Source of the DNA: a virus
IMG/VR virus record: IMGVR_UViG_3300012176_000002
Location: 53,474-117,473 of that record
DNA length: 64,000 nucleotides
Strand: one strand, 5' to 3'
The notes under the pieces were generated by a model. It was given only the letters and a program-made list of their open reading frames with translations. It did not search any database and had not been told where the DNA came from. The translations under genes and the position numbers were made by a program. Positions 13,989 through 51,722 of the stretch are shown in pieces. The stretch's first letter is position 1. Every line of letters begins with the position of its first letter.

Positions 13989-15377
13989 ATATTAACTTGT
14001 TTATTAGGGAGTGAAATAATTAATTGTTTTGACAACAAATATTCAAAAGAAATGTTGAAAAAATGGTCTGGCAAGAACATATTGATTTGCCCAGTTTGCG
14101 GTAATCCATATGAATATTGTCACGGGATGGTAGCTACCCCATATTTTCGTCATAAAGAAAAAGCAGAATGCCCAGATAAATACACAGAACCAGAGACCAA
14201 GGAACATATAAAGGGCAAGCAAGACTTGTATTACTGGATATCCAATCAAGATGATGTATCTGATGTTATATTAGAAGGATGGCTTCCGGAAACTAAGCAA
14301 CGCCCCGATATCATGTTCAAACATAATAAAATACAATATGTTATTGAATATCAATGTACTCCTATAGCAAGTGAATTTTATGAGAGACATTTGTTATATC
14401 AGGCGGCTGGTATTCATGATATTTGGATCTGTGGGACAGAAAAATATTTCTTTGATAGAGCTAGAGATAAGACTATAGAGAATCATTGCGATTGTTATTA
14501 TAATTCATCCTTAAAGCTTTTTGCCTTTAATAATATTAATTACCATCATCCCATATTAGATTTAAATGCAAAATATAACAGCAATGACAATGTACTTTTA
14601 AATAGGGTAAAAAGCCAAGGAGTAGGTATAAGAGAAGAAAAAGTATCAAGACTACCATTTTATTATATTGCTCCTGAAAATACAATATTTGATAATGATA
14701 AAATATGTTTGCATCAGGAGTTCTTAATTAATGTTAATCATAAATTAGAAATTAAAAAAACAATAATTGACATGCGAAAAGATTATAATGGGGAGATGAA
14801 ATTAGGTTTAGAAAGATTCTGTGAAAAATGTGTAAAACTCATACATGCAAAATATCAGAATTTCAGCAATTTTCACATAAGTTGTAAAAATTATAAGTAT
14901 AGATATAAAATAGAGATAGATAGTTATGTTTTTACTTTTCAAAAGAAGACAAATATAATTGATTTTTATGACTTAATACAGGAAAAATATGAACAGTATA
15001 ACTATACAGGGGAAAATATATATGAGGTAGTCAATTTGATCTGTAATTTTATCAATCCATTGATTCAAGAACTAAGCTTATATGATTCCTTTGTAAAAGA
15101 ATATAAAGATTACCCTTTCTATTTAATTATCGCCGAAAGCAAGAGGACGGATCAATATAAAAATGTAAGATTCAAATATCTTAGTGGCTTTCTAGACTCA
15201 TACTATTATTTTAGTACTGATTTTATGAAAGATTTTCTTAGTGTTTTAAAATTCAAATCTTCTCCCAAAATATTCATGATACCCTTCTCTGTTTATATGG
15301 ATCAAAAGATGCTTTTAGATATATTTAAAAAGCACGGATTTACTAATGTTAAATTTTTCAGCAAGGAGGATGAATGA
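13989..15377 (+). CDS. CoiA-like PD-(D/E)XK nuclease domain protein
   Basis: CPVC zinc knuckle, YFRH, PETKEH, RPDI, IEYQ motifs; ATA start after AGGAGG (ORF track start 14052). Confidence 0.7.
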   Translation: MLTCLLGSEIINCFDNKYSKEMLKKWSGKNILICPVCGNPYEYCHGMVATPYFRHKEKAECPDKYTEPETKEHIKGKQDLYYWISNQDDVSDVILEGWLPETKQRPDIMFKHNKIQYVIEYQCTPIASEFYERHLLYQAAGIHDIWICGTEKYFFDRARDKTIENHCDCYYNSSLKLFAFNNINYHHPILDLNAKYNSNDNVLLNRVKSQGVGIREEKVSRLPFYYIAPENTIFDNDKICLHQEFLINVNHKLEIKKTIIDMRKDYNGEMKLGLERFCEKCVKLIHAKYQNFSNFHISCKNYKYRYKIEIDSYVFTFQKKTNIIDFYDLIQEKYEQYNYTGENIYEVVNLICNFINPLIQELSLYDSFVKEYKDYPFYLIIAESKRTDQYKNVRFKYLSGFLDSYYYFSTDFMKDFLSVLKFKSSPKIFMIPFSVYMDQKMLLDIFKKHGFTNVKFFSKEDE

Positions 15378-17053
15378 CTAAACAAACCATATATGAAATT
15401 ATTAAACTACCAACTTCCGTGATATCAAGAAGTAAGAAAAAAGAAGCCCCTTCTAATGGCATAGTCTATAATTTGGGTAAATACTCCTACGAGAAAGCAA
15501 GTTCCAAATGCGAGATTGTTTCGATAGGAGATCACCAACTTTTTAGAAAAATAAGAGAATATTACGGTAACACAAAACACCCCGACGAAATATTTGATGA
15601 ACTTCACGATATTGGTGAAGCAATCAAACACCTTAAGTCTCAAACTAGTAGTGAAGATATTAAAAATCAAATCAGAAGTCTTGAAGACCAAAAACATAAT
15701 TTAATCTATGTAAAAGATGTAGTGAATGTGGTTGTTACAAATAAGGTGGCATATGAGTCAATTGCATTAAATGGATTTTTAATGAATGGAATAAGGTACA
15801 AACGATTCTGCTGCGGCTCCGGCCAGATGCGTAGAAATACCGTTACTTTCGTAAATGAACAATTATATGAGTACCTGCTGGAGCACTTGATGTGCGGATT
15901 ATATGGAAGAATAGAATCCATTTCTCTGGCAAAATTTTCTGCTTACTTCGCGCTCTCCTCTTCTTCCGTTCTATGGGTGAGAAAACCAAGAATTTGCGTA
16001 ATCCCCGACCTTGAAACATTGCTGCCAAACCAAAACATAGATTTTATTGTGAAAGATCCGGATGGATCAAAACACGTTGAAACAAGGGTGATGAATCTCA
16101 AACTAAATTCATGTGATGGAGAGGGACTAATATCCCCAGAATGTGCAGAATGGTTTTCTGCTGACATGGGATTAGATTATACGTGTTGCCAGTTTGTGGT
16201 ACGCACTCCGTTTGTAAAAGGATGTCTTCTAACATTTGACTTCAAGACTTATCTGAAAAATGTTTGTGGTACTGAAAAAATCAATAGCATTTATGGAGAA
16301 TGCTTTAAAATTGATGACATTGATGTCTTGCTAACAGAAAGCATGTTCAAGATGCATTCATTTTATAACAGCGTAAATGAATACCAAAGTTATCATGATG
16401 AGTACGATTTGCAATGGGGCATAGCAAGATATAACAAAAAGCAAGATAACGACTATTCCCTGTTAAATTATCAATACATCCAGAACAATAACCTAAATGA
16501 CAATGCAATTAAAAATTTAACCAATATGTCGGCTGATTGGTTTGAAAAAATTTGCTCAGGTGATAAGTTCTATACAATAATGTATGCTATTGGATCAAGA
16601 AAGGATGATTGCGATTTTGAGTCCATACAGAATTCATGTGGCAGCATTCATACAAAAGCTATTGTCCAAAACAGTCATATGCTAAAAGACGGATATGTAA
16701 GACGAAAAATATATGACAGCATCAAAGAAAGCTTTAGACAAGCTAAGTTGGGTAGGATATTTTGCCATGGCAATTACCAATTCATGTTGTCTGATCCAAT
16801 ACCGTTATTAAGGAACGCCGTTGGATTAGATCCCACTGGACTAATCCTCTCAGATCATATATATAGTAAATATTGGAATAATCATGCCCCTGTTGAAATT
16901 GATGCATGCCGTAGTCCTATGGTAGACCGGCATGAACATAATATTTTAAAATTGGCGAAAAATACTGAAATGGATTATTGGTATCAATACTTATACAGCG
17001 GGATCGTCTACTCCATCTATGACACAAGTACAATCCGGCATAGCGATAGTGAT
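15374..17053 (+). CDS. yonO: YonO-like single-subunit phage RNA polymerase, exon 1
   Basis: GSGQMR, DGEGLI, VRTPFVKG, RSP motifs; ends ...HSDSD at the intron boundary. Confidence 0.85.
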
Positions 17054-18213
17054 TAACATAGTAGTCACCCCATATTAGAAATAATTTGGGAAAAATTCGG
17101 TGAACCTGTAATTGCAGGGTGTGGCATTTATCAGCCGCTAACGGTGAAATTCTAAAAGCGATTTAATAAACATTATTTGTGGAGGTGTATTTAGGTCAAC
17201 AAATATTATGTTTATGAATGGTACAACATTAAAACTGGGTATGTGTTTTATGTTGGAAAAGGCAAAGGAAATAGAATAAATCAGACGCAAAAATCGAAAA
17301 GAAATAAATTTTTCATTAGATACATAAATAAATATGAATGTGCTGCCAGAATTATTAAAGATGACTTAACCGAGGAAGATGCACTCTTGTTAGAAAACCA
17401 GATTATAATTAGCTACAAAGAAACAGATCAATGCTGTTGTAATATGGATAATGGGGGTAGGAACGGAGGTTGCGCTTTTGCAGAAAACAATGGGATGTAT
17501 GGTAAAACACATACTGATGATGTAAAGGCTCTTATTAGTAAAATAAATTCCGATGGCAGACACAAAGGGGAAAATAATTCCCAGTATGGAATCTCTCCCA
17601 AAGACAGAATGTGTCCTGAAACATATAATGGATGGAAACTTAAGCAGTTAAACCGAAAGCATGGAGAAAGTAATCCTAATTTTGGCAATCACATTCTGCA
17701 TCAAAGATATTCAACTGATAAAGTCCTATCAAAAGAAAAACAATCTAGACCCAAGTCTAAAAACGGCAGGGCACAAAAAATATCCATGTATGATGAAAAA
17801 ATGAAAAATGAAATTAAATTCGATTGCATTAAAGACTGCGCTGAATATTTAATAGAAAACAATTTAACAAGAAGCAAAAATCCAGATATTATTTATCAAG
17901 GAATCTGGGCTGCTAAGCGCAAGAATAAACTGCGCTATGATCATTATTTTGTTTATTAAATTGCTCAAGAAAATACCGTGCCAAGCTTAGGTAGAAATAC
18001 CTATGAAGGTGTAACGACTAGGACATACAGGCTAAATCAATGATATGCCAATGAAGTCCGTACACGTTAGGTGAAAATCCTACGTGGAAGTTCCGAATAC
18101 GAATAAATATAGTTTATTCACGGTGGACTCGCTAACCACCGTCCTAACGTAAAACGAGGGTAAAGAGATAGTCTACTCCCCTAATAAATATCGGGAAACC
18201 GAGGGTATAAAGG
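17054..18213 (+). mobile_element. group I intron in the RNAP gene
   Basis: 5' exon ends in U and intron ends in G; AATTGCAGGG, GACTAG and AAGAGATAGTC core elements; removal restores SD|FDGD in frame. Confidence 0.9.
17195..17959 (+). CDS. GIY-YIG homing endonuclease (intron-encoded), NUMOD-like C-terminus
   Basis: YYVYEW...FYVGKG...R...E...N; GGAGGTG SD followed by in-frame GTC (ORF track start 17243 omits the first motif). Confidence 0.85.
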   Translation, partial: VNKYYVYEWYNIKTGYVFYVGKGKGNRINQTQKSKRNKFFIRYINKYECAARIIKDDLTEEDALLLENQIIISYKETDQCCCNMDNGGRNGGCAFAENNGMYGKTHTDDVKALISKINSDGRHKGENNSQYGISPKDRMCPETYNGWKLKQLNRKHGESNPNFGNHILHQRYSTDKVLSKEKQSRPKSKNGRAQKISMYDEKMKNEIKFDCIKDCAEYLIENNLTRSKNPDIIYQGIWAAKRKNKLRYDHYFVY

Positions 18214-19335
18214 TTCGACGGAGATATTGTCTTCACGACCGATAACAAAGAACTGATTAACGGCGCTTATCGCAAAAATAATCCAATTACTTATGACAAA
18301 GAAAAGGCCCCAAGTAGAGAATATACATATGAAAATATAATCAAGTGTGATTTAGATGGGTTTGACACGCTGGTCGGTCAAATTACGAATAATAGTACAA
18401 GCCTAAATGCAATGCTACCACTTTTCCCTAAGTCTAAAAAACCAGAGGAACACCAAGAAATATTAACACGCTTAAAGTTGTTAAGAGAAATTATAGGCGC
18501 TGAAATTGATAAAATCAAACTTGGTATAGCTCCCGAATTCCCTAAAGAATGGGTTGAGCGTGTAAAAATTGATCTCATAAACGATTCCCCTGAGATAATT
18601 GAGGAAAAGAAAAGGAGAAATTCTCTGGTAATTTGCAAAAAGCCTTATTTTATGATCTATTTATACGATGCGCTAAGTAATTCCTATAAGAATCACGTCA
18701 GACAATTTAATTTAGATTGCAGAACAAAATTTAAAATGCCCCTGAATGATTTGAAGTATAAAAAACGTAAAACCAGTGACGAATTGCATTTCTTGAATAA
18801 AGCTAACTACTTTTCTCCCGTTCTGGACACTCCCTGCGTTATGAATAAAATATGTCATATGTTTGAAAAGTTGCAAGATGATATTTCGTTTGACAATTCT
18901 TTTTCCGATTCTATTTTAAGAAATTTTGCCGAAGGAAAATACGATATTAGTGAAGATAAAATGAATGAACTACTTGTTTACTATAAGGAATATAAGTCTA
19001 GGCGTAAATTTTCATATGTGAAAAAGCTGCTGGGTGATCTATATACAAAAACTGATTTTGCTGAGTTTACCCAAGCAATGATGGATAACCTTATTAAAGA
19101 GTACAGAAAGAAGTGCCAAGATATCTCAACTAATTCAATGGAATTATTTCAATATATGATTCGCCTGCCTGAAGCCGTTGATAATTTTGATTATACTTTT
19201 ATCTGGGATATTTTAGGGGACGATATCTTAGATGCCATTCCAAAAGAAAATTCCATTATATACAAGGAATCAGAGACGGGCAGAGACTACTTAGGAAAAA
19301 AATATGAAGTAATGGAGGTTAGGATTATAAATTGA
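18214..19335 (+). CDS. yonO: YonO-like RNA polymerase, exon 2 (spliced product about 933 aa)
   Basis: FDGDIVFTTDN...GQITN, in frame with ORF 18412-19335. Confidence 0.85.
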   Translation, partial: FDGDIVFTTDNKELINGAYRKNNPITYDKEKAPSREYTYENIIKCDLDGFDTLVGQITNNSTSLNAMLPLFPKSKKPEEHQEILTRLKLLREIIGAEIDKIKLGIAPEFPKEWVERVKIDLINDSPEIIEEKKRRNSLVICKKPYFMIYLYDALSNSYKNHVRQFNLDCRTKFKMPLNDLKYKKRKTSDELHFLNKANYFSPVLDTPCVMNKICHMFEKLQDDISFDNSFSDSILRNFAEGKYDISEDKMNELLVYYKEYKSRRKFSYVKKLLGDLYTKTDFAEFTQAMMDNLIKEYRKKCQDISTNSMELFQYMIRLPEAVDNFDYTFIWDILGDDILDAIPKENSIIYKESETGRDYLGKKYEVMEVRIIN

Positions 19336-39574: not shown

Positions 39575-41305
39575 ATGCCTGATTTAAAAATTTTAGCGGG
39601 AGTAGAACTAGAAAGTAATGCAATTAATACTCTCCGATCACAGTTGTCCGGCATAAAAGATGTAGTCTTGAAGGTTGATAAAATAGAAATTTCAAGTGCC
39701 GCCCTGAATAGTATTCGTTCTCAGGTATCTAGGTCTGGGCCTGAAATGGCTAGTGTTGGAACCGAATTAGGGAACCAAATTAGTGCAGGAATCAGTAGGG
39801 CGACCAGAAATATAAAGATCAATGTAAACAGTTCAGAAATTGATAAGTTAAGATCTGCATTAAGCTTAAAAGGTGTTGATACCCAAACTATTAGTGATAT
39901 TACTAATAGATTATCAAATCTTGATGTTCAAATAAAGAAAATTTCAACATCGTTTAAATCTGCTGACGGAAAAAATCTTTTATCACAAATCAATATATCT
40001 GCAATTAATCAACTAGGAAATGCAGTAGAAGTTATTGATAAATACAACCAAAAGACCGGGGAACTTACTTCCACTAATACAAGAGTATCTACTAGTTTTG
40101 ATCAAGTTGCTAGTGCCGCGGAAAAAGCGGCTGAACGAGAAAGAGTTGCCGCTGAAAAGGCAGCTAATGCAACTGAAAAGGCAGCTGCAAAAAAACAAGC
40201 TAGTATTCAATCTCAGATACAATCCGCAATTGACACTAATTCATTCGCCGCCAGCTTTGCCGGAATAGACGCTCAATTAAAAAGAGTTGGCGAATCGTCT
40301 CAATATTTGGATCAGAACTTCCAAAATACACTAAGAACGCTTGATGGATTTCGAGGCTTTAATTGGGATACAGTTAAAGGAAACCCTGAACAGGCTGCGA
40401 CTGCATGGAATTCATATAATACATCTTTAAAAAATGCCAGAAACACTTTGACTGCGGCCATAAGAGAGCAGTCCACTTTTGTTAATGGGCTAGAGAGAAT
40501 GAGAGCCATCTCTAGTATGGAGGCGTGGCTAAATAAAAATTCTGCCGCCAGTGCTCGATTCGGAGACCAGATAAAAAATATCATTACGCAATTAAAAACT
40601 GCCGATAGAACACAGTTTGATAATCTAAAGAATCAGTTTGCGATAGTTAAAGACCAAGCGGAAGCACTGAACATGACTGGTAGAAGTTTTTCCAGCGAAA
40701 TGAAGAACATGTTCTCAAAATTTTCAAGTTGGTTTAGCGTCGCTACTGTTGTCATGCAGAGTATTCGTGGCATTAAGCAAATGGTATCTGATGTTCATGC
40801 CATTGATACGGCATTAACAGATTTATATAAGGTAACGGATAACACTAGTACCCAATACGCTCAATTTTTTAAAGAAGCTTCAGCGAATGCAAAAGAGTAC
40901 GGAAGTACTATTAAAGATATGATCGCTTCCACCGCTGATTTTGCTAGGTTGGGGTACAGCCTGCAAGAAGCGTCTGTATTGGCGAAATCTGCAAATATTT
41001 ATAAAAACGTCGGGGACATTTCTGTTGAAGAGGGAACCAAGAGCATCATTAGTACATCCGCTGCTTGGCGCGAATATAAAAATGATCCAATGGCAATTGT
41101 CGATAAGTTTAATGAAGTTGGAAATAACTACGCAATTTCTTCAGAACAAATAGGAGAGGCCCTACAACGATCTGCCGCTTCGTTAATGGCAGCAGGAAAT
41201 GATTTAGATCAATCTATAGCAATTATTACAGCTGCAAATACAGTCGTACAAGACGCATCCGTTACCGGAACTGCAGTAAAAACCATGGCAATGCGCTTAA
41301 GGGGT
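39575..41305 (+). CDS. tail tape measure protein, exon 1
   Basis: TP901-type TMP domain motifs (DKFNEVGNNYAIS, L.RSAASL, TMAMRLRG). Confidence 0.88.
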
Positions 41306-42758
41306 AAGTCAAAATTGTGCCCAGTATGTAGAAATACATATACCGTGTGCGCTTAAACACGGCACGACAACTATATATGTTAAAGAGTTAGGGGTAACTC
41401 AAGACGTAGGAAAGATTACAATGCTTTTTTGAAAGGAAATGATAATATAAAACATACAATTGAATATATACAAACTATTTTTAATGAATATAATGTTTTT
41501 GTTTTAGAATACATAAACAGCAAAAATATAATAATTATTGATGAAGATGGCTTCAAATACAAAGCGCAATTATACCTTGTAGAAACTAAAAAAAAGCTTC
41601 CGCATAAATTCAGACAAAATCCATTTGTACTAGAAAACATTAATACTTATCTCAATAAAGTAAACTCTAATCTTCTATTATTAAGCAAAAAGTATATTAA
41701 TTGCAAAACAAAATTAGAATTTATTTGTTCACTTCATTCAAATGAGGGGTCTCAATATATTTCCTTAGACGATTTACTTCAGCGTACTGGTTCGTGCAAA
41801 TACTGTTCATATAAAAAACAAGGTGAATCCCAAAGAATAGATACATCAATAATAATTAATAGATGTATTGAATTAAATTTAACTTATGTTGATAGATATA
41901 ATAAAAATCAAGAAACATGTGTTACATTTATTTGTAACAATCATCCTAAAAAAGGGATTCAGCATATTATATGGTGCCATCTTAAAACTTGTTCCGTTGG
42001 GTGCTCTTTTTGTGCCGGACGAAATAAAACAACCGAAGATTTTCGGGAGGAAATGAAACATATTAGCCCCGACATTCAAATAACTGGTGAATATGGGGGA
42101 TCTGAAAAGCATGTTGAATGTAAATGTTTGATATGTCAACACGTTTGGCATCCAATTGGAAGAAGTTTAAAAAGTGGGCAAGGTTGCCCTGCGTGTTCAA
42201 TGAGTAAGGGCGAAAGATGTATTTTAAAAATTTTGAATAATTATAATATCCCCTTTTTATCTCAGCATACCTTTAAAGATTGTTCTTATATTGGAAAATT
42301 GAAGTTTGATTTTTATTTGCCGGATCATAATATCCTAATAGAATATGATGGGGAACAACATTTTTTCCCTGTTGATTTTGCCAATAAGGGGCAAGAGTGG
42401 GCTATTCAAAAATATGAGCAAATAAAAATGCGTGATAAAATGAAAGACGATTATTGTGCTAATAACAATATAAGATTAATTAGAATTCCATATACAGAAT
42501 TTGATTTAATTGAAAAAATAATAGAAACAGAAATTATATTTTAAAAAGCATTGTAAAATCCCAAGAGACTGCGGGGCATATGTGGTAACATATATGCTGA
42601 AGTTGTCCTCCCTGTTGAAAAACGAGAGTGATATACAGTCCAATCTCGCAATATAACCCCAAATTATTAAAATGCGAGAGTCGGCCAGAAATGACCGACC
42701 GCTATGTATTAACATAGTCAGTAATCATTTACTAATTCATGATGAAAGTCATAGATTG
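41306..42758 (+). mobile_element. group I intron A in the tape measure gene
   Basis: Exon ends GGT and intron ends G; P7 GACTG/CAGTC; P9.0 AATCT/AGATT before the terminal G; splicing restores MRLRG|AKTELEDAG. Confidence 0.9.
41429..42544 (+). CDS. intron-encoded Vsr/DUF559-like homing endonuclease with N-terminal zinc repeats
   Basis: KGE..I...L, FDFYLP, IEYDGEQH, RD..KD.YC..NNIRLIRIPY; true start may be ATA 41447. Confidence 0.82.
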   Translation: MKGNDNIKHTIEYIQTIFNEYNVFVLEYINSKNIIIIDEDGFKYKAQLYLVETKKKLPHKFRQNPFVLENINTYLNKVNSNLLLLSKKYINCKTKLEFICSLHSNEGSQYISLDDLLQRTGSCKYCSYKKQGESQRIDTSIIINRCIELNLTYVDRYNKNQETCVTFICNNHPKKGIQHIIWCHLKTCSVGCSFCAGRNKTTEDFREEMKHISPDIQITGEYGGSEKHVECKCLICQHVWHPIGRSLKSGQGCPACSMSKGERCILKILNNYNIPFLSQHTFKDCSYIGKLKFDFYLPDHNILIEYDGEQHFFPVDFANKGQEWAIQKYEQIKMRDKMKDDYCANNNIRLIRIPYTEFDLIEKIIETEIIF

Positions 42759-43295
42759 GCAAAAACAGAATTAGAAGATGCCGGACTAGATACAGAAGGC
42801 ATGGCAACATCAGTTGCATCATTAAGAAAAGAACTAGAAGCACTTGCTGGCGTTGACATTATGCTCGACGATGACACGTTCAAAGAAAGTTTTGATATCT
42901 TTGATGGTATTGCTGAAAAGTGGGGCGAGCTAAAAGACATTCAAAAAGCAACGATTACAGAATTAGTCGCTGGAAAACGCCAGGGCAACGTTTTCTCATC
43001 GCTCATGGAAAATTGGGACGTTGCTAAGGAAACTCTTCTTACCTCACAAAATTCTGCCGGAAGTGCAATGAAGGAAAACGAAAAGTTCCTTGAAAGCATG
43101 GACGGTAAACTTGCTCAGTTAAAAGCAAATTTTGAAACACTTTCAACTGGTATTTTTAACTCTGATTTCCTCAAAGGAGCTATTGATGCCGGTTCTGCAT
43201 TTTTAGACGTCTTATCAAAAATAATAGAAGCATTAGGAGTATTCGGAACCATTGGCGCAGGTGCCGGTATTGCGATGCTAGTCAAGAGCTTAGGT
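42759..43295 (+). CDS. tail tape measure protein, exon 2 (179 aa)
   Basis: AKTELEDAG...ELVAGKRQGN...SAGSAMKENEKFLES; ends KSLG. Confidence 0.85.
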
Positions 43296-43779
43296 AGACC
43301 AAAACAGGTCTTGCTTATTTCCGACAGTAAGCGAGCCTACCATAAAGAAGAATATGCTATAACGGCAGCATAAACAACTTTGTGGCATTGCGGCTCTATA
43401 AAAAATAAAGAGGATTAATTGCTGGGATACCAGAATGCCAATCAAGCTACAACGTGGATTTAAATATCGGGCGTGAATGCGGCGAAAGCAGAAAAAATTG
43501 ATTGGATGGCAAAGGGTGAAATAAAAGCGTGATTCTATCGCGTCCCTTAAAGAGCCACTAACAACGGTACGATCAGCAGCCAACCCTACAGCGTTTAGTA
43601 ATACTATATAATCCGGTAGTAAAAGTAGCGCAAGCTATGCCGGGGTAAAAGTATGAATCGTGGGGAAAGTTCAACGAGCACCATTCCTCAGAGTGTATCA
43701 CCGCCTTAGAGTGATATGCTTTTAATGTATGTTCTAAGTGAAACAGTTCAAATGAATCAATAATATAGTTCATAACGGG

Positions 43780-43821
43780 AACAACCACCTCAAACGGCAA
43801 AGTTTAGGATGGTTGTTTTTT
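43780..43821 (+). terminator. terminator-like hairpin inside intron B (may also be a P9 element)
   Basis: AACAACCA...TGGTTGTT followed by a T-run. Confidence 0.55.
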
Positions 43822-43847
43822 GAGTGATTGTATTTTTTATTTCCTAT

Positions 43848-43876
43848 ATTTTAGCACTATGGGAATAGAAAGTCAA
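43848..43876 (-). promoter_or_regulatory. sigma-A-like promoter, antisense into the intron B ribozyme core
   Basis: TTGACT-N17-TAAAAT on the minus strand. Confidence 0.65.
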
Positions 43877-43927
43877 TAGTAGTATTACTAAAATCATGAA
43901 AAATCATAAGAAGGAGAAAGAGAGATA

Positions 43928-44146
43928 ATGGCTGAATTAAAAGTAGTATTCAACAATGTAGTATTCCATGACGAGGAAGGAAACGAAATTGTTTTTAAAC
44001 CAGTTAGAAAGGAAGATGGAAGTTATAGTTTAAAGGGGGATCTGGAAGAGGAAAAGGAAACCCTAGAAAGTCTTGCTTTGAGGATTTGGGAATTGGAATG
44101 TATGGTGTGTGAGCAGCAGTTGGAAATTAGTGAATTAATAAGATAA
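43928..44146 (+). CDS. intron B cargo ORF 1 (72 aa, acidic)
   Basis: AAGGAG SD, ATG start, hairpin downstream. Confidence 0.7.
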   Translation: MAELKVVFNNVVFHDEEGNEIVFKPVRKEDGSYSLKGDLEEEKETLESLALRIWELECMVCEQQLEISELIR

Positions 44147-44284
44147 CGAAAAAGAATAACAAGTCCCCTCTCGTTAAAAGAAGGGGTTTTGCTGTTACTT
44201 AAATCTTATGTATGTCTTTTTTTGTAACAGGGGCAAGTCAATAGTAGTATCAATTAAATTCATAAAAAAAAGGAGAAAGAGATA

Positions 44285-44800
44285 ATGGAAAATAAACAAA
44301 AGTTGGGGTGCAAAAAAGTGATACTGGGGGAATTCATAGAAGAACTTTCAGAAATCATACTTGATTATGCATGTCAGAAAAAAATGACAATATCCAATAT
44401 TGAAGAGGTCTTGGCGATAGTAATAGGTTATATGGAAGATAACGCAACTATGACAGATGATACTCATGCCGTTGATACAATTCTAACAGATTTATGTTCT
44501 GATATCCACGATATTTATGCGGCTTTAGCAGAATTATATAAGGTGACTGATAATACTAGTACCCAATACGCCCAGTTTTTAAAAGAAGCCCCTGCCAACG
44601 CCAAGGAATGCGGAAGCACTATTAAAGACTATATTTCTTTTACCGCAGACTTTGCCAAGCTGAGATATAGCTTGCAAGAGTCATCCATATTGGCGAAATT
44701 AGTAAATTTTTATAAAAACACCGGAGACATTTCCGTCGAAGAGGGAGTCACTAGCACAAAATTTTACCATGAAGAAGGTAAAGAACCAATAAAAATTTAG
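44285..44800 (+). CDS. intron B cargo ORF 2: chimera containing a diverged copy of TMP exon 1 sequence
   Basis: LYKVTDNTSTQYAQF.KEA.ANAKE.GSTIKD...GDISVEEG is shared with exon 1. Confidence 0.75.
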   Translation: MENKQKLGCKKVILGEFIEELSEIILDYACQKKMTISNIEEVLAIVIGYMEDNATMTDDTHAVDTILTDLCSDIHDIYAALAELYKVTDNTSTQYAQFLKEAPANAKECGSTIKDYISFTADFAKLRYSLQESSILAKLVNFYKNTGDISVEEGVTSTKFYHEEGKEPIKI

Positions 44801-44911
44801 TCCCAAAAGTATGAGGGATGGTATAAACTAGAGAACCGCATAATATTTTTAAAGCACAATATTAAATAAGGTGTCCCGCTGCCTATATCCCAAAGGTGGA
44901 GCATTAAAGTT

Positions 44912-44937
44912 AAAAGAGACCGAAATGGTCTCTTTTT
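44912..44937. terminator. bidirectional terminator between convergent cargo genes
   Basis: AAAAGAGACC-GAAAT-GGTCTCTTTT perfect 10-bp stem. Confidence 0.8.
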
Positions 44938-44995
44938 AATTAGAACAAAAAATCAGCAGATTTTTACGGAGGATGCAAGTTGCATCTTCCGTCAA

Positions 44996-45475
44996 TTACC
45001 ACGTATGACCACAACTCTTGCACTTAAAACTCTTATTAATTTTCCTACTAAAAATCCCCAATCCTGCTATTGAAGCTCCGCGTTCCATTGCGCCAATCTT
45101 TTGAACGACATTGCTTCCACAGGTAGGGCATTTTGGGGTTGGGTCGATTGGTTGGGTGAATGCCGGGGAGGTAGGGGTTTGTGTTTCAGGAAGGGGTGAA
45201 GCAAGGGGTGGGCTCAAGTATTCCCATCTAACACCATCGTGTGTGAATTTCGCCTGTTCTCCTCTATGACATCTTTCACAAAATCGTGCTATACACCTAT
45301 ACAAATCTTCCATCATGCTGTATTCCTCATTTCCACATTGTGGGCAAATATAGGATTCGGACAATAAGTTCTTCCACCTACTACTATGATCCTCCCCGCA
45401 TTGAGGACAAAGATCTGTTCCGAAATTTATAAATGAACTACATTTAACGCACTTGATGAAGCCATAAGTGATCAT
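44996..45475 (-). CDS. intron B cargo ORF 3: multi-zinc-ribbon protein (159 aa), antisense
   Basis: Multiple CxxC pairs, C-terminal KCPTCGS...FKCKSCGHTW; GGAGG SD; start moved to MITYG. Confidence 0.8.
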   Translation of the reverse strand: MITYGFIKCVKCSSFINFGTDLCPQCGEDHSSRWKNLLSESYICPQCGNEEYSMMEDLYRCIARFCERCHRGEQAKFTHDGVRWEYLSPPLASPLPETQTPTSPAFTQPIDPTPKCPTCGSNVVQKIGAMERGASIAGLGIFSRKINKSFKCKSCGHTW

Positions 45476-45504
45476 TGATTTTTCCTCCATTTTGTAATAA
45501 GACA

Positions 45505-45533
45505 ATTGTAACATAAATAAAAGAATATTCCAA
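45505..45533 (-). promoter_or_regulatory. sigma-A-like promoter for the zinc-ribbon cargo gene
   Basis: TTGGAA-N17-TACAAT with extended TG. Confidence 0.65.
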
Positions 45534-45539
45534 TACTTG

Positions 45540-48500
45540 TCGATAAAATCTGTCGGAGATATAGCAAGTACTACTAGTCTTATTTCAAATTTAGGGCAAA
45601 ATGTTCAAGCAATCACAATGGCGATGCATGGATTTAGCGCGGCACAGCAAGTTTCAATGATGACTTCCGCTGGACTTGATAGCGCTATTCAAAATCAAGT
45701 TTTATCATTACAAGGATTAAGCCCCGCACAAGTTCATGCTGCGATGTCCAATGCAACTATGGCGACCGCAACAACTACCAATGCCGCAGCTCAAGGATTA
45801 TTGACAAAAGCACTCGGAGCATTGAAGGCTGCCGTTATTGCACATCCAATATTAGCCTTTGCAGCAGCAGTCGGAATTGCATTTGTCGCAGTAGATCTAT
45901 TAACCGAATCACTGTCAGAGGCGCAGGAAAAAGCCGCCGAATCTGCCGAAGCATATGAGAAGATAAAAACAGAAATTCAGCAGATGAACGATGAATTGGA
46001 GACTGCTCGTGACAGAATTAATGAACTAAATGCTAGAGAAAACCTTTCTCTCGTTGAAGAAGCGGAACTAGAAAAATTAAAGGTACAGAACGAATACCTT
46101 GAAAAGCAAATTTCGCTAAAGGAAGCACTGTCGGGCTTTAGCCAAAAACAGGCTATTAGTGACGCGGTAAATGCAGCTGGTAAAACTTCTGAGAAAGCTG
46201 TTGCTTATGAAGGACAGTATTATCGAGCAGACGGTACGACTGGTGACAAGTATGACGACACCTATGGTAGATATGGACTAAATCGCCTAGACTACGTTCA
46301 GTCAAATTTAAATGCAATAAAGACCTACGAGCAAATTATTAATGATCTGCAAAAACAGCAAAATGCGTTAGATAAAGAATCTGAGACTTTCCAAGATGAT
46401 TTTAATGACTTGGATAAACAAATCAACGCACATTTATCCAAAATTGATGAATGGAATGCTGAAGTAGCTTCTGTTATGGGGGAACTTGGTGAAGAGTTAA
46501 GCACTACATTGGAAGCATATCTGAATGATATTTCTATGAGCGATGAAGCTACTCAGATTGTCGAGCAGTACAACTCTCTCATGGATCAGATCCTAGGCGC
46601 TACTAACAGCGCAGTAGATGAAGCCAGCAACAAAACAGATATTATTGACAAGATTTTTGATCAAAAAAAATGGAGCGACGCCCTTTCTGATATGCAATAT
46701 GCATATGGGGCAGGAATCAGTCTTGATGATATATTAGGCGACTTCTTCACAATAAATAAGGACATCTCTACTGTTCTTGATGAAGCAGGGATAAATAAAG
46801 AAGAACTGAGCAAATATCTAAAATCCCTCCTTGCGCCTGATGAAATTGATTTCAATGAGTTAAGAAGTCAGCTCACTACCACTCTTGATCTTGAAAACTC
46901 TTCTCTTGCTAAAAATAAATGGCTTGACTCCAAATCTGACATGCAGATAGAAATTCTATATGGCATTTCTAAAGACAGGGATATATCTACATTGTCTATG
47001 GAAGAACTCGACGCAGAAATTGAGAAGATCCAAAATCAGAAAATATTCATATCCGTTTCTGATGCAGCTGAACAAATAGCGGCAGTTGGCGAAGAGCAAG
47101 AACTTGTCAACAAGATCCTTAGTGAAGGTACTTCTATTGCCGCTGAAGATTATCAGAAGCTTATTGAATATTCGAAAGAATATGAGTCCTGCCTGACGTA
47201 TGAGGGGGACAGATATACTCTAAATCGCAAAGCGCTCAAAGACCTTACAAAAGAGCGTGAGAAAACCCTTAAAACGCAGATTAAAGAAGCTAAAAATAAT
47301 AAGTATCTTGATTATCATAATTTGTCTAAGGAGTTATATGCTCTCACTCGCGACTATTCGAAATATGACGCCAGCAAAGACCGTTCAATCAAAACCACAC
47401 TAGCTCAGTTAAGTAGCCTAGAAGCAGAAATCAATCAATACAGACTTCTAGAGCAACAATTATTGACCGCTTCAAACGCATTTGATAAGTACAAAGAATC
47501 AAAGAATGCGGCTGATTATGGTGATAATTACAATACGTCTAATGACGCCAGAGGATCTTTAAAAGAAGGTTTTGAAACAGGAAAGGTAGGAACGGTAGAG
47601 TTTGAAAGCGCCGTTGACTTACTCGTTCCCGAAGCTGAAATTGATAAGGGCATTTCTGGGATTAAAAAGTACTATGACAAAACAATCAAAAAATATTTCA
47701 CTGATGACAATGACGGTGTTGTTAATTTTATAAACGACGCACTTTCCAAGGGACTGTTCACTGGTTCTCTTAGTGACTTCTTAGTGACTGATGGGAAGGT
47801 ACTAGATGATTTCTGCGAACAGTTAAATATAACCAAAGAAGTTGCGCTTGCCATATTTGGTGAATTGGAAACCTATGGATACGGGCAGAATTTTGATTGG
47901 TTTGATGAACTGTTTAGGGGCTCTGAAGATTCTTATAACGCACTTGAATCCTTGGAAGTTCAGTTACTAAAAACCAAGGCAGAAATGATTAAAAGTGGTG
48001 ATTGGGGCTTTGACGGTGAAAGTAATAGTGCCAAGACCAAAGAAGTCATTGACCGACTTGAAGAAATTAAACAAAAAAAGAAGGAAGTAGCCCTTACTGC
48101 CGCTGATGGTATTATTAACTATGAACAGGACAAGGCGAATCTAGAGAAATTATATCAGGATTATGAAGCTTTACTCGTTCAGATAAACCAATCAGAAGAT
48201 GAAGAAGTAAAAATAAAGCTACAAGCAGAAGCAGATGAATTATATGCACAAATAGAACATTTAGAAAGCCAGCTTACAGAGCCAACCGAAATGAATATTA
48301 CCATTGCGGAAGAAACTTTAACATCTGAACTGGCTAAGTTCAAGAGAGCATCCGAAGATCCTCAATACGCTGCTGCAATTAATATTACTACCGACGAAGC
48401 CCAAGGGAAAGTCGATGAATTTACCCAGAAACTTGAAGCGATAAATCAAATAAAATATGACCAACAAGAATCTGTACTTTATGGGGTGGGGCAAACGGTT

Positions 48501-51500
48501 GATAAAATCAAGTCAAAGATTGAATCAACAAAGGATTTAAACGTCACCACGACTACGGCAATGACTAGGCTGGAGGCGGTCAATAATTATGTAACCGCTC
48601 TTCGTAACAAGATTTCGCTAGGGGCTAGTTTTAAGGTAACGACAACAACTTCCGATCCTGCGAGTGTCAATGGGACGGCACATGCTAGAGGAACTGTTCC
48701 GAAGATTAAATCCGCAAGTTTTGGAAATGGATATTTAGGAAAAGCTTACTCATCTGGCAATTGGGGAATTGGTCGTGACGAAATTTCTCTGACGGGTGAA
48801 CTTGGGCAAGAGATGGTAGTCAGAGACGGCAGATTCTTTACTGTTGGAGACAATGGCGCAGAAATGGTCGGTCTTAAGAAGGGCGATATAGTATTTAATC
48901 ACCTTCAGACTCGTGAACTTTTGTCGAAGGGTTACGTTACCGGACGTGGAAGGGCTTACGCTGAAGGTTCTGCTTATGTTTCCGGTGGTTCTGGAATCAA
49001 TGTAACTGGCGGGACAAGTAGCAAATCTAGTAGTAAGTCCAGCAGTAAATCCAGTAGTAAAACTAATTCATCCGACGATTCAGACGCGTCTAAGAGTTTG
49101 GAAGACTGGATTGAACGTTTTATTGACGCTTTTCAATACGGGGCGAATGCACTTCAAAGACTTGCGAATGATGTCTACCAGAGATACACCGATCAAAACC
49201 CTGTTATCAATCAAATGGTCTCTGACATACATAATTTTGTTCAACTTGAACAGCAAATGTATGATAGATATATGCAACAAGCCAACTCTCTCGGACTGTC
49301 TTCTGATTACGTCCAAAAGATCCAAAACGGCGCAATTGATATTAGTACCATTACTGATGATAATCTAAAAGAAAAAATTTCTGATTATAAGCAGTGGTAT
49401 GACAAAGCGCAAGGTGTGAAAGAAACTATTGCTGAATTAAAAGTTCAGATCAGAGATCTAAATAATCAAAAACTAAGCAACATTGTGGATGATTTTGAAC
49501 AACTAATTGGTCTCAGCAAAAGCTTGATTTCAGTACAGGAATCATACATTAAGTTAATTGAGGAGTCAGGGAAACGTGTTGTTGAAAATGATTATACGGT
49601 TCTTATTGGAGAGGAAGCCAATACCCTAAGATATCTAAATGCACAGTTCGCAACGCTAAACGCTGAATATAACTCCCTTGTAGCAGCCGGTGCTCTTGAT
49701 ATAGATGACTTCATCAAGTGGAAAACGGTTCTTACTGATATCAAAGAGGAAATCTACCAATCGCAAATAGCATTAGAGCAATATAAGAATTCGATCCGCG
49801 AAGTTCGGTGGGAACCGTTCTTATCTGGCTTGGACGGTCTTGATAATGCAAACGATGCTCTGGACGATATGATGACTCTTTTGGGCAATAGTGGACTGTT
49901 TGATGAAACCAACATTTCATCCATCGGGAAGACCAAATTAGGCTTGCTAAGTCAACAGCTTGTGAACAACAAAAAGATGGCAGCGCAGTATAAAGAAGCC
50001 ATTAACACTCTTGCCAAAGAACTCAAGAATGGAACAATCACCCAGAAGGAATACGATGAAGAATTACTGAAATATCAAAAACTGCAACGTGAAGCTGCCA
50101 TTGCTACCAAAGAAAGCAAAGATGCAATAATCAGTTTAATAAAAGATGGAATTGACAAAGAAACTGAAGCATTCAACAAACTCATCGCAGCTAAAAAAGA
50201 GGCCCTGTCTCAAGACAAGAAAAATGATGAGTATGCTAAAAAGGTAAATGATAAGCAAAAACAAATCAATGCAATCCAAGCTCAACTTGCAGGATTAGAG
50301 GGCGATAACTCCGCAGAGGCAATTCAAAAGAGAAAGAAATTAAATTCTCAATTGAGTACTCTGAATGAGGAATTGCAGGAAATTCGTAAAGACAGGGAAA
50401 TTGAAACTTTAGAGCAAACTTATGATGACGCACTTGAATTATTTGAAGAATATCAAGAAAAGATAAAAGATGAGTTAGACTATAATCTTGATTTGAGAGA
50501 TAAAGAAATTGCTAATATGCTCATCACGACAAAATCCAGCTATGATGAAATATTCGGTTATTTGCAGGATCTATCAGATAATTACAACGTGGCTCTGACG
50601 GACAGTATTACTAATCCATGGAAATCTGGCACAGCAGCCGCTCAAAATTATTATGATGCGGTAAATAAGATTTCCGGTGTATCATCTGGAATAGATACCG
50701 CTCCGGTTAGCACGACATCCTCTAATGAGTCAAGCATTCGGCAGCTATACTCTTCTCTTCTGGGGAGAGACGCCGACAAGACTGGACTGGAACATTTTCT
50801 AAGTATGATGGATTCAGGGACGACGCTGGATCAAGTAAAGTCGGATATTTTGAATTCAAGTGAATACAAAATCAAAAGTCTTTATAAAAGCGTTCTTGGG
50901 CGCGATGCTGATGCTGTAGGGTTACAACATTGGACGAATGCCCTGAACAGCGGCGCTTCTTTATCTGAGATTGAATCAGCAATGCGTATGTCCGATGAGT
51001 TCTGGAAGAGGTCGAGCGAATTTGTGACGGGACTATATAAGGATGTTCTAGGTCGTAGTCCTGATTCTGCGGGACTGAATACTTGGCTACAAGCTATGCA
51101 GAAAGGAATGTCTAAAAAGGAAGTTGAAAGGTCATTCTACAATTCTGCGGAATTCCAGAATAAATATTCCGGTAAGTCCAATCAAGATTATATAACTGCT
51201 TTATACAGCAAGATCCTAAACAGATCCCCTGATTCTGGCGGGTTGTCAACATACTTATCTGCACTGAATAGTGGCAAACCTCGTTCTTATGTTGTTGATG
51301 CGTTACTATATTCGGATGAGTTCAAGAAGCTAAAGGGTTATGCGAAAGGAACGATTCGAGTTCCAAAAACCGGTGTTTATAAAACCCAAGAAGAAGGATT
51401 GGAAGCTATAATTGGTAGTGGGGGACTTGTCACTCCGCTAAATAAGGGAGACACTGTATTTACAAACCCTCAAACGATGCAGCTATGGGATATGTCGAAA

Positions 51501-51722
51501 GATCCCTCTTCTTTTATTCTGAAGAATTTATCTAATGCTCTGCCAAATTATTCAGACTTGAATTCTCAACCTGCTTTAAGTGTGCAGATAGATAAACTGA
51601 TAGGAAGTGTTGAGTATAGGAATAAAGATGATTTGCCAGAACTTAAAAGATTTTTAGAAATGGCTGCGGATCATACTATAGATAGGATCAAGGGGCAAGC
51701 AAGAAATCTCGGTAAGTTATAA
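45540..51722 (+). CDS. tail tape measure protein, exon 3 (spliced product about 2816 aa), with four DUF4214-like repeats near the C-terminus
   Basis: Long helical ORF with no SD at its start; LY..LLGR.PD..GL..W repeats. Confidence 0.85.
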   Translation, partial: SIKSVGDIASTTSLISNLGQNVQAITMAMHGFSAAQQVSMMTSAGLDSAIQNQVLSLQGLSPAQVHAAMSNATMATATTTNAAAQGLLTKALGALKAAVIAHPILAFAAAVGIAFVAVDLLTESLSEAQEKAAESAEAYEKIKTEIQQMNDELETARDRINELNARENLSLVEEAELEKLKVQNEYLEKQISLKEALSGFSQKQAISDAVNAAGKTSEKAVAYEGQYYRADGTTGDKYDDTYGRYGLNRLDYVQSNLNAIKTYEQIINDLQKQQNALDKESETFQDDFNDLDKQINAHLSKIDEWNAEVASVMGELGEELSTTLEAYLNDISMSDEATQIVEQYNSLMDQILGATNSAVDEASNKTDIIDKIFDQKKWSDALSDMQYAYGAGISLDDILGDFFTINKDISTVLDEAGINKEELSKYLKSLLAPDEIDFNELRSQLTTTLDLENSSLAKNKWLDSKSDMQIEILYGISKDRDISTLSMEELDAEIEKIQNQKIFISVSDAAEQIAAVGEEQELVNKILSEGTSIAAEDYQKLIEYSKEYESCLTYEGDRYTLNRKALKDLTKEREKTLKTQIKEAKNNKYLDYHNLSKELYALTRDYSKYDASKDRSIKTTLAQLSSLEAEINQYRLLEQQLLTASNAFDKYKESKNAADYGDNYNTSNDARGSLKEGFETGKVGTVEFESAVDLLVPEAEIDKGISGIKKYYDKTIKKYFTDDNDGVVNFINDALSKGLFTGSLSDFLVTDGKVLDDFCEQLNITKEVALAIFGELETYGYGQNFDWFDELFRGSEDSYNALESLEVQLLKTKAEMIKSGDWGFDGESNSAKTKEVIDRLEEIKQKKKEVALTAADGIINYEQDKANLEKLYQDYEALLVQINQSEDEEVKIKLQAEADELYAQIEHLESQLTEPTEMNITIAEETLTSELAKFKRASEDPQYAAAINITTDEAQGKVDEFTQKLEAINQIKYDQQESVLYGVGQTVDKIKSKIESTKDLNVTTTTAMTRLEAVNNYVTALRNKISLGASFKVTTTTSDPASVNGTAHARGTVPKIKSASFGNGYLGKAYSSGNWGIGRDEISLTGELGQEMVVRDGRFFTVGDNGAEMVGLKKGDIVFNHLQTRELLSKGYVTGRGRAYAEGSAYVSGGSGINVTGGTSSKSSSKSSSKSSSKTNSSDDSDASKSLEDWIERFIDAFQYGANALQRLANDVYQRYTDQNPVINQMVSDIHNFVQLEQQMYDRYMQQANSLGLSSDYVQKIQNGAIDISTITDDNLKEKISDYKQWYDKAQGVKETIAELKVQIRDLNNQKLSNIVDDFEQLIGLSKSLISVQESYIKLIEESGKRVVENDYTVLIGEEANTLRYLNAQFATLNAEYNSLVAAGALDIDDFIKWKTVLTDIKEEIYQSQIALEQYKNSIREVRWEPFLSGLDGLDNANDALDDMMTLLGNSGLFDETNISSIGKTKLGLLSQQLVNNKKMAAQYKEAINTLAKELKNGTITQKEYDEELLKYQKLQREAAIATKESKDAIISLIKDGIDKETEAFNKLIAAKKEALSQDKKNDEYAKKVNDKQKQINAIQAQLAGLEGDNSAEAIQKRKKLNSQLSTLNEELQEIRKDREIETLEQTYDDALELFEEYQEKIKDELDYNLDLRDKEIANMLITTKSSYDEIFGYLQDLSDNYNVALTDSITNPWKSGTAAAQNYYDAVNKISGVSSGIDTAPVSTTSSNESSIRQLYSSLLGRDADKTGLEHFLSMMDSGTTLDQVKSDILNSSEYKIKSLYKSVLGRDADAVGLQHWTNALNSGASLSEIESAMRMSDEFWKRSSEFVTGLYKDVLGRSPDSAGLNTWLQAMQKGMSKKEVERSFYNSAEFQNKYSGKSNQDYITALYSKILNRSPDSGGLSTYLSALNSGKPRSYVVDALLYSDEFKKLKGYAKGTIRVPKTGVYKTQEEGLEAIIGSGGLVTPLNKGDTVFTNPQTMQLWDMSKDPSSFILKNLSNALPNYSDLNSQPALSVQIDKLIGSVEYRNKDDLPELKRFLEMAADHTIDRIKGQARNLGKL

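Follow-up and report, generated by a model that had tools for sequence, protein, structure and literature searches.

In the present study we have analysed a 64,000-nucleotide stretch of viral DNA (the window) and confirmed that its tape measure protein (TMP) gene is interrupted at 43296-45539, the observation extending further than first noted. This segment is probably a group I intron that harbours independently expressed accessory genes and is spliced out together with its cargo. In the mechanism that we propose, the ribozyme would be formed by the first 443 nt and the accessory genes would lie in the extension preceding the 3' splice site; the late pre-mRNA would be transcribed across the entire insertion, the guide at 43331-39 would align the end of exon 2 (..UAGGU) with the first bases of exon 3 (UCG..), and removal of intron and cargo would leave one TMP, ..LVKSLG/SIKSVGD... 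The proposal is based on intron anatomy, homology, exon collinearity, covariation and cargo turnover. The gene is laid out as follows.

39575..41305, + strand: TMP exon 1 (PhageMin_Tail, Pfam PF10145), ending ..MRLRG
41306..42758 (approximate boundaries), + strand: intron 1, an upstream insertion with an endonuclease ORF within
41429-42544: homing-endonuclease ORF of intron 1, 371 aa (PHROG 559, 9084 and 7140 endonuclease families)
42759..43295, + strand: TMP exon 2, ending ..LVKSLG (GGT), from the junction alignment
45540..51722, + strand: TMP exon 3, beginning SIKSVGD..., with coiled coils and DUF4214 repeats

Exon 1 is collinear with the TMPs of PMBT24 and of L003 (L numbers designate the sequences compared), and the site of intron 1 is uninterrupted in L003, L011 and PMBT24. 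Exon 2 gives tblastn matches in the TMPs of many Firmicutes phages, and exon 3 is collinear with the TMPs of L011 and L012, both intron-less, in which the TMP crosses the site without a gap and runs on for 1995 and 1912 further codons. The TMPs of PMBT24 and phiCDIF1296T likewise read through the intron site, the TMP of the intron-less homologues being a single polypeptide. As the sequence-only reading had observed, TMP homology stops at 43295 (..KSLG) and picks up in frame at 45540, with nothing resembling a Shine-Dalgarno sequence upstream of the latter; the only start-like codon before exon 3 is a TTG. The reading frame of exon 2 itself continues past 43295 to a stop at 43373. The poor start signals of exon 3 and the single polypeptide of the homologues argue against a truly split TMP, in which a ribozyme relic and a moron island would lie between two genes and exon 3 would be translated alone with no splicing. 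Under the intron reading the predicted exon 2-exon 3 RNA junction is ..GAGCTTAGGT/TCGATAAAATC.., and the junction word expected in spliced RNA is ..GTCAAGAGCTTAGGT/TCGATAAAATCTGTC...

The ribozyme core was delimited by its helices, homology and covariation, and the individual elements by a helix check.

43296..43738, + strand: group I ribozyme core, 443 nt, helices P1-P8
43296-311: P1 extension hairpin
43331-39: P10/P1 guide GCGAGCCTA, complementary to the joined exons TAGGT/TCG
43340-85: P2
43410-14/43685-89: P3
43419-25/43573-79: P4
43428-31/43566-69: P5, with a large P5 extension
43584-89/43660-65: P6
43676-80/43730-34: P7
43691-701/43711-21: P8
43722-29: J8/7
45534..45539, + strand: intron 3' end TACTTG, with terminal G45539

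A conserved P3-P8 core with the P3/P7 pseudoknot is thus present. The two core elements picked out earlier, AATTGCTGGGA and GATCAGCAGC, turn out to be the P4 strands (TTGCTGG 43419-25 and TCAGCAG 43573-79). With regard to P7, which had been given as GAGCA/TGCTT, the GAGCA strand is retained and its partner is corrected to TGTTC (43730-34), since only TGTTC leaves room for J8/7 and covaries in the relatives; there the helix reads GAGCA/TGTTC, GAACA/TGTTC or GACTA/TAGTC, which pairs in 100% of cells and shows two double-sided changes. Compensatory changes keep P3, P4, P7 and P8 paired in three diverged intron types. The minimum free energy fold of the core recovers P2, P3, P4, P5, P6 and P8 (z = -2.8), none of 100 shuffles being as stable. 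The core, which occurs in a single copy in the 119.8-kb record, shares homology with group I introns of staphylococcal phages, aligning with an intron of Staphylococcus phage PMBT8 that Rfam scores (92.5 bits) and also with a Kayvirus element upstream of an I-HmuI-like endonuclease gene. The covariance-model scan that had been suggested as a check was negative, Rfam RF00028 giving no match in the window at the gathering threshold or even at E<=10 on narrow windows, nor in L003, L010, L017, L022 and L030, nor for the endonuclease-bearing insertion 1; the same model does score introns in PMBT8. This silence counts against the intron and in favour of a split TMP. We read it as insensitivity of the model and not as absence of an intron, because the core aligns with an intron that Rfam scores.

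The analysis of the guide sequence links the core to both exon ends. The plausible P1 of the sequence-only reading is borne out, TAGGT 43291-95 pairing with GCCTA 43335-39 so that a U.G pair marks the splice site, and an equivalent pairing in other letters exists in L022, L010, L017 and L059. Adjoining the P1 guide strand, CGA 43332-34 pairs with TCG 45540-42 at the start of exon 3 to form P10. In five lineages a contiguous guide, P10 portion followed by P1 portion, matches the joined exons with letters differing in each.

Window: GCGA/GCCTA
L022: AAACTG/GCTTAT
L010: GAAAAT/GCCGAC
L017: TAT/GCCGCT
L059: GAATAT/GCCCAC

Over the five lineages 24/30 P10 positions are paired (P = 2.5e-6). P10 draws its weight from the relatives; the 3-bp match in the window alone does not exceed chance, as some 396 sites preceded by G include 11 that match equally well. 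The covariation of the guide with both exon ends is further evidence against a split TMP. At the other end, the last bases of the intron are kept in L007 and L008 despite diverged upstream sequence, and G45539 is the sole in-frame G within the open stretch preceding exon 3. The P9.0 partner originally put at 43723-29 has to be abandoned, as these bases are the conserved J8/7 (AATGTA); a shorter P9.0 between AAG 43736-38 and CTT 45536-38 is a possible candidate, for which covariation gave no convincing counterpart in L022. The short P10 of the window and the putative character of P9/P9.0 are points against the intron reading.

Comparison of the cargo across related phages, which had been recommended from the window alone, demonstrates that core and junctions are kept and that the cargo varies. 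In the closest relatives, L007, L008 and L009, the core is 95-99% identical and the splice junctions identical to those of the window, the cargo varying cassette by cassette. The same cargo variants appear in contigs from other samples, and the DNA contigs from such samples that align to the stretch contain cargo variants only, with no intron-less joint among them. The start of exon 3 in L007 and L008 is only about 73-74% identical (about 78% in protein); the core is therefore far better conserved than its flanks, which is difficult to reconcile with a relic in a split gene. All relatives carry the intron at the same TMP codon, a Gly codon at which phages further removed carry group I cores that differ, followed by 1.2 to >5.7 kb of cargo that includes antirepressor, toxin-antitoxin-like, abortive-infection-like and transposase genes. 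The relatives keep the core and an antisense zinc-ribbon gene (orfC) adjoining the 3' splice site, their other cargo comprising ANT/Bro, Panacea antitoxin, AIPR, NYN, DUF3800, ImmA-like, TnpB (L025) and DDE transposase (L031) genes; in the minimal forms of L010 and L059 the antisense gene stands alone between core and 3' splice site. In L056 the 5' half, the core and orfC are joined to a different continuation, from which it follows that orphan intron halves can persist, a circumstance that favours a split TMP over the intron. The idea of a splice-away insertion site is supported, and more strongly by these comparative data than by the window alone, although we infer the splicing itself. The stretch from P7' to the last intron bases may tolerate gain, loss and exchange of genes because it would be removed from the TMP message, and the extension would now serve this phage group as an accessory-gene hotspot for genes of moron, defence and mobile-element types.

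The 3' extension, which runs for 1.8 kb from P7' to the 3' splice site, holds the three ORFs already recognised in the insertion.

43780..43821, + strand: terminator-like hairpin with T-run directly after the core, read from sequence
43870..43885 and 44235-44250, + strand: two exact copies of the cassette header AAGTCAATAGTAGTAT
43928..44146, + strand: orfA, 72 aa, strong RBS, followed by a hairpin at 44165-44190
44285..44800, + strand: orfB, 171 aa, followed by a hairpin at 44913-44937
44996..45475, - strand (antisense): orfC, zinc-ribbon protein, 159 aa, ATG with RBS, ORF open to 45514
45505..45533, - strand: predicted sigma-70-like promoter for orfC (TTGGAA, 17 nt, TG-n-TACAAT), from a consensus scan only

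The reported lack of GIY-YIG, HNH, LAGLIDADG and Vsr motifs in the three ORFs was upheld with Pfam, PHROGs, NCBIfam and PADLOC, and no intron-encoded endonuclease of the LAGLIDADG, GIY-YIG, HNH, His-Cys box, PD-(D/E)xK or EDxHD types was found in them. orfA belongs to no known family in Pfam or PHROGs, shows a dN/dS of 0.28-0.43 and is present in L007 and L008 and missing from L009; the site of its deletion, seen in L009 and also in other samples, falls between the two cassettes. Close relatives clearly swap cassettes and differ in which of them they possess. orfC is present in every insertion for which the contig reaches the 3' end and has no homologue in GenBank phages at E<=1e-3, and its AlphaFold model (pLDDT 77) matches only generic zinc-ribbon proteins. 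Its consideration as a hidden endonuclease, for which nuclease domain, nuclease-like fold and conserved His are all missing, was rejected for lack of support and not because it was disproved. The predicted orfC promoter overlaps the final 35 nt of the intron.

The several terminators of the sequence-only reading were recovered as terminator-like hairpins at 43780-43821, 44165-44190 and 44913-44937, the promoter and terminator calls in the cargo being consensus matches no commoner than in shuffled sequence. It speaks against the intron that one required transcript would span three such hairpins, a gene on the opposite strand and antisense promoter-like sites, and together with the other promoter-like sites of the insertion these favour a split TMP; considering the guide, the core and the intron-less homologues, we judge a split TMP improbable. 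Trans-spliced group I introns have been described in organelles, and the strong hairpin with its T-run immediately after the core, as well as + strand cassettes with their own promoter-like headers, might suggest that a first transcript stops at 43780-43821 and that the 3' splice site and exon 3 belong to a second one begun in the cargo. Such trans-splicing appears very unlikely, given that no complementary arms to hold the two RNAs together were found, that a + strand promoter near the 3' end is not clear and that L010 and L059 have only the antisense gene between core and 3' splice site. We propose splicing in cis across the cargo, with read-through of the internal hairpins possibly promoted by the YonO-like RNA polymerase that the phage encodes, in a gene taken as spliced, at 15374-19335; the cargo may also confer some benefit. 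The late genes of SPbeta are transcribed by YonO as a single operon, and this polymerase is devoid of the flap domain that serves in hairpin-dependent termination (PMC5467207).

The architecture had been thought undescribed. Our literature searches found no phage group I intron with accessory-gene cargo, but as a general statement this goes too far, since IStrons and the hexacoral nad5 intron, the closest known layouts, carry non-endonuclease genes (PMC4227781, PMC10167242). The IStrons CdISt1 of Clostridioides difficile and BcISt1 of Bacillus cereus consist of a 5' group I ribozyme and a gene-carrying extension of 1.2-1.8 kb before the 3' splice site (PMC4227781, PMC3984707). They share with the window intron the lack of a homing endonuclease, the Firmicutes setting and a splicing event, inferred in our case, that makes the insertion harmless (PMC4227781, PMC3984707). 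This common layout of ribozyme 5' and genes 3', the comparable size (1.8-2.4 kb for IStrons, PMC4227781) and the TnpB and DDE transposase genes in the cargo of L025 and L031 raise the question of whether the 3' extension is an insertion sequence remnant and the element an IStron, or a derivative of one, spread by transposition. We give this origin hardly any credence: IStron cargo is an IS200/IS605 or IS607 transposon (TnpA/TnpB) found at many sites and in several copies per genome, whereas the window has no TnpA/TnpB (Pfam, PHROGs, NCBIfam, PADLOC) and no transposase, the 119.8-kb record contains the core once, and the relatives occupy one conserved site in one gene. Furthermore, the interval from P7 to P3' is too short to accommodate P7.1/P7.2, and the cargo here is variable, non-transposon and includes an antisense gene.

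TMP-IVS1-3 of Bacillus cereus group prophages are group IA introns in the TMP gene, with different cores fitted to one site through P1/P10 and some members devoid of a complete endonuclease gene, as here; the passage on them describes them only as with or without such a gene and mentions no other cargo (Tourasse and Kolsto 2008, PMC2504315). The hexacoral mitochondrial nad5 group I intron houses 2 to 13 protein-coding genes other than an endonuclease (PMC10167242), but it is organellar and non-viral and contains fixed core respiratory genes instead of a variable accessory set. Phage morons and accessory-gene hotspots resemble the present cargo as small late-operon cassettes that bear promoter-like and terminator-like signals of their own and whose presence varies among close relatives and whose contents are defence-like, toxin-antitoxin-like and antirepressor genes. 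Morons sit between genes, whereas the present cassettes interrupt an essential gene within its coding sequence and would be harmless only through splicing.

If splicing does occur, a self-splicing intron does more than neutralise itself: it provides a protected slot in an essential virion gene where accessory genes may be gained, lost and exchanged at no cost to that gene. This would represent a new kind of accessory-gene hotspot for phage genomics, extend the IStron principle beyond transposons and account for the annotation of TMP genes as fragments in many uncultured Firmicutes phages. Gene callers and Rfam overlook these introns. The ribozyme core with its short 3' signal is a candidate splice-out cassette for gene carriage in engineered phages. 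More tentatively, and with considerable doubt, a widespread cargo-intron class with three linked properties may exist in large SPbeta-type Firmicutes phages. Its 3' region might be an exchangeable island of genes for defence, counter-defence and competition; the antisense zinc-ribbon protein, which is invariant, might represent a new factor tied to the intron, with a role in mobility or as a maturase or a regulator at the 3' splice site; and the host polymerase might see short, terminator-bounded cassettes while the YonO-like polymerase reads through them, the ribozyme then clearing the TMP message.

The cassette header was also considered as a genome-wide promoter motif and discarded, the 119.8-kb record having no copy beyond the two cargo cassettes. 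orfB, whose homologues in a set of 5.8 billion proteins are confined to its own cluster, is composed of a unique N-terminal part and a diverged copy of TMP exon 1 (44498-44746, with 78% nucleotide identity to window 40787-41035). An origin of this copy as the co-conversion tract of another intron was dismissed, since the homology stops 27 codons short of the nearest known intron site. The dN/dS of orfB is 0.14 with respect to L009.

The tape measure protein (TMP) gene lies in a 119.8-kb IMG/VR virus record and occupies three pieces of the window, all on the plus strand and separated by two insertions, the first of which sits approximately 537 nt upstream of the second:

39575 to about 41305, plus strand: TMP exon 1, with a PhageMin_Tail domain
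about 41306-42758: insertion 1, containing a 371-aa homing-endonuclease ORF (PHROG 559/9084)
about 42759-43295, plus strand: TMP exon 2, with C-terminal residues ..LVKSLG
43296-45539: insertion 2, 2244 nt
45540-51722, plus strand: TMP exon 3, with N-terminal residues SIKSVGD..

The sequence-only reading had placed the interruption of TMP after 43295 and its resumption at 45540, and the comparison with 41 related IMG/VR loci bears this out. An uninterrupted TMP at the site was found in two of them, L011 and L012, which continue for 1995 and 1912 further codons, respectively, and exons 2 and 3 align to these intron-less proteins with a gap-free junction. The TMPs of Enterocloster phage PMBT24 and C. 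difficile phage phiCDIF1296T also extend beyond the homologous position, and in most other relatives the TMP similarity breaks off at the identical Gly codon (GGT). These alignments indicate that the gene is truly interrupted at 43295/45540. Relatives carry further TMP interruptions at other codons, up to three or four in locus L030. In the cultured phage phiCDIF1296T (L005) the TMP annotation is split around 3360-3943 into genes phi024 and phi025, and the 585 nt that separate them may be an unannotated ORF-less intron; the end of phi024 roughly coincides with the insertion 1 site of the window.

The assignment of insertion 2 to the group I introns is supported by four lines of evidence, namely homology, helices, covariation and guide sequence. 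The covariance-model scan proposed earlier gave no match to Rfam RF00028 in the window, not even when a 581-nt segment was searched at E<=10; since the relatives and insertion 1 also go unscored, we read this silence as a limit of the model. The stretch 43410-43528 is 75-78% identical to unannotated stretches of Staphylococcus phages. In a Kayvirus, an I-HmuI-like endonuclease gene is located downstream of the match, and the match in Staphylococcus phage PMBT8 adjoins three Rfam-scored introns (best 92.5 bits), one of which is alignable with the window core over P3-P4-P5 (TAATTGCTGGGA..GCTACAAC..GTGAA). In PMBT8 (L002, 1388-2800) the three scored introns stand in series and are followed at 2501-2613 by a fourth element that resembles the window core and is unscored by Rfam.

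Every core helix can be placed in insertion 2, whose first 443 nt constitute the ribozyme. When 43285-43745 is folded without constraints, the MFE structure contains the P1 extension, P2, P3, P4, P5, P6 and P8, with a z-score of -2.8 and equal stability in 0/100 shuffles; unlike typical IA2 introns, the core leaves no space between P7 and P3' for P7.1/P7.2. The earlier observation is confirmed with two structural corrections: the 3' strand of P7, formerly taken as TGCTT, is replaced by TGTTC at 43730-34, and the stretch at 43723-29 formerly assigned to P9.0 forms the conserved J8/7. AAG (43736-38) and CTT (45536-38) are candidates for a short P9.0. Three diverged intron types occupy the 43295 site (the window type, the L022 type and L030) and keep their helices with different letters. 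P7 reads GAGCA/TGTTC, GAACA/TGTTC and GACTA/TAGTC, and every cell (100%) is paired, two of the pairs being altered on both strands; compensatory differences also occur in P3, P4 and P8, the last staying paired through minor changes inside each type.

The joined exons TAGGT/TCG are complementary to the guide GCGAGCCTA (43331-39), and a U.G wobble falls at the 5' splice site. The layout of the guide, P10 directly followed by P1, is common to four other lineages with differing exon ends (slashes mark the P10/P1 and exon boundaries):

L022: guide AAACTG/GCTTAT, joined exons ATAGGT/CAGTTT
L010: guide GAAAAT/GCCGAC, joined exons GTCGGT/TTTTTC
L017: guide TAT/GCCGCT, joined exons AGCGGT/ATA
L059, an SPbeta-type prophage in a Ruminococcus genome bin: guide GAATAT/GCCCAC, joined exons GTGGGT/ATATTC

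Over the five lineages P10 pairs at 24 of 30 positions, with 11 expected (P = 2.5e-6); the window's own 3-bp match is not unique. The open stretch ahead of exon 3 has no in-frame G other than G45539, and the terminal six intron bases, TACTTG, are retained in L007 and L008 despite divergence of all upstream sequence.

Downstream of the ribozyme, insertion 2 carries three genes:

43928-44146: orfA, 72 aa, of no known family
44285-44800: orfB, 171 aa, a unique N-terminal part joined to a copy of TMP exon 1
44996-45475, minus strand: orfC, a zinc-ribbon protein

In line with the absence of endonuclease motifs noted earlier, Pfam, PHROGs, NCBIfam and PADLOC assign none of them an endonuclease domain. 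orfA and orfB each have a copy of one 16-nt header and an RBS in front and a hairpin and T-run behind, and a third hairpin follows the ribozyme core. A sigma-70-like promoter match (43848-43876, minus strand; TTGACT, 17 nt, TG-n-TAAAAT; 10/12) is directed antisense into the core, its -35 box lying inside the first header. orfB has no relatives beyond its own cluster and is under purifying selection (dN/dS 0.14 against L009). Its TMP-like part (44498-44746) is 78% identical to exon 1 (40787-41035) and equally distant from exon 1 of L007, which indicates an old copy maintained by selection; that it might interfere with the tail assembly of competitors is pure speculation. The C-terminal module of orfC is near-invariant (CPTCGS..ERGAS..SKKINKSFKC..CGYTW), and its predicted structure (pLDDT 77) resembles generic two-ribbon proteins only.

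The comparison among related phages, also suggested earlier, revealed a common core (95-99% identical) and the same junctions around different cargo in three close relatives:

L009: insertion of 2454 nt, without orfA and with an extra DarG-like ORF
L007: insertion of 3355 nt, with orfA and with an ANT/Bro antirepressor replacing orfB
L008: insertion of 4818 nt, with an extra 0.83 kb directly after P7' and a further 2.1 kb

Further samples from the same habitat yield contigs with these joints, and several variants occur within one sample. More distant lineages hold 1.2 to more than 5.7 kb of cargo, including a SocA/Panacea antitoxin-domain protein with a partner ORF, AIPR, NYN and DUF3800 proteins, an HTH and ImmA/IrrE-like protein, TnpB and a DDE transposase. 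The complete TnpB gene (OrfB_IS605 and TNB; L025, 10116-11327) and the DDE transposase gene (L031, 7358-8380) lie within the cargo, and transposons therefore land in the intron slot. Cargo ORFs from about 33 loci form about 70 clusters, some spurious. The sole constant cargo is the orfC-family gene, antisense in every case, adjoining the 3' splice site wherever the contig includes it, and the only gene of the minimal forms L010 (1193 nt) and L059. An NCBI contig (L056, GCA_910574865.1) matches L059 at 97% identity over the 5' part of TMP, the core of the intron and orfC. The two diverge 46 nt ahead of the 3' splice site, beyond which L056 has a repeat of 260 nt, then three small genes and another TMP (577 aa plus 2183 aa). 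L056 represents an orphan 5' half, the recombination breakpoint lying within the intron.

The literature searches found no description of a phage group I intron with accessory genes. B. cereus group prophages are known to have group I introns in TMP genes, with different cores fitted to one site among them (PMC2504315). IStrons share the layout of a 5' ribozyme and 3' cargo but differ in carrying a transposon as cargo and in being present at many sites in many copies (PMC4227781, PMC3984707). Inside the nad5 intron of hexacorals lie 2-13 ordinary genes (PMC10167242).

The comparative evidence supports the interpretation of insertion 2 as a splice-away cargo site. Splicing would remove everything between P7' and the final few intron bases, so that this stretch would be free to vary. 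The main difficulty is that the late transcript would have to traverse an antisense gene as well as three hairpins. Among the phage's genes is one for a YonO-like single-chain RNA polymerase (15374-17056 and onward to 19335; PF05183, E=3e-7), and read-through by this enzyme is plausible, since YonO of SPbeta reads 37 late genes as a single operon and is devoid of the flap domain that serves hairpin-dependent termination (PMC5467207). The YonO-like gene itself seems to be split by an insertion (~17057-18213) that includes an ORF containing NUMOD3. Because endonuclease-bearing introns lie 350-750 nt upstream of the insertion 2 site in the window and related genomes, and the window and L007 are unusually alike in the exon 2 flank, a reasonable guess is that the endonuclease-free intron spreads by co-conversion during the homing of its neighbour.
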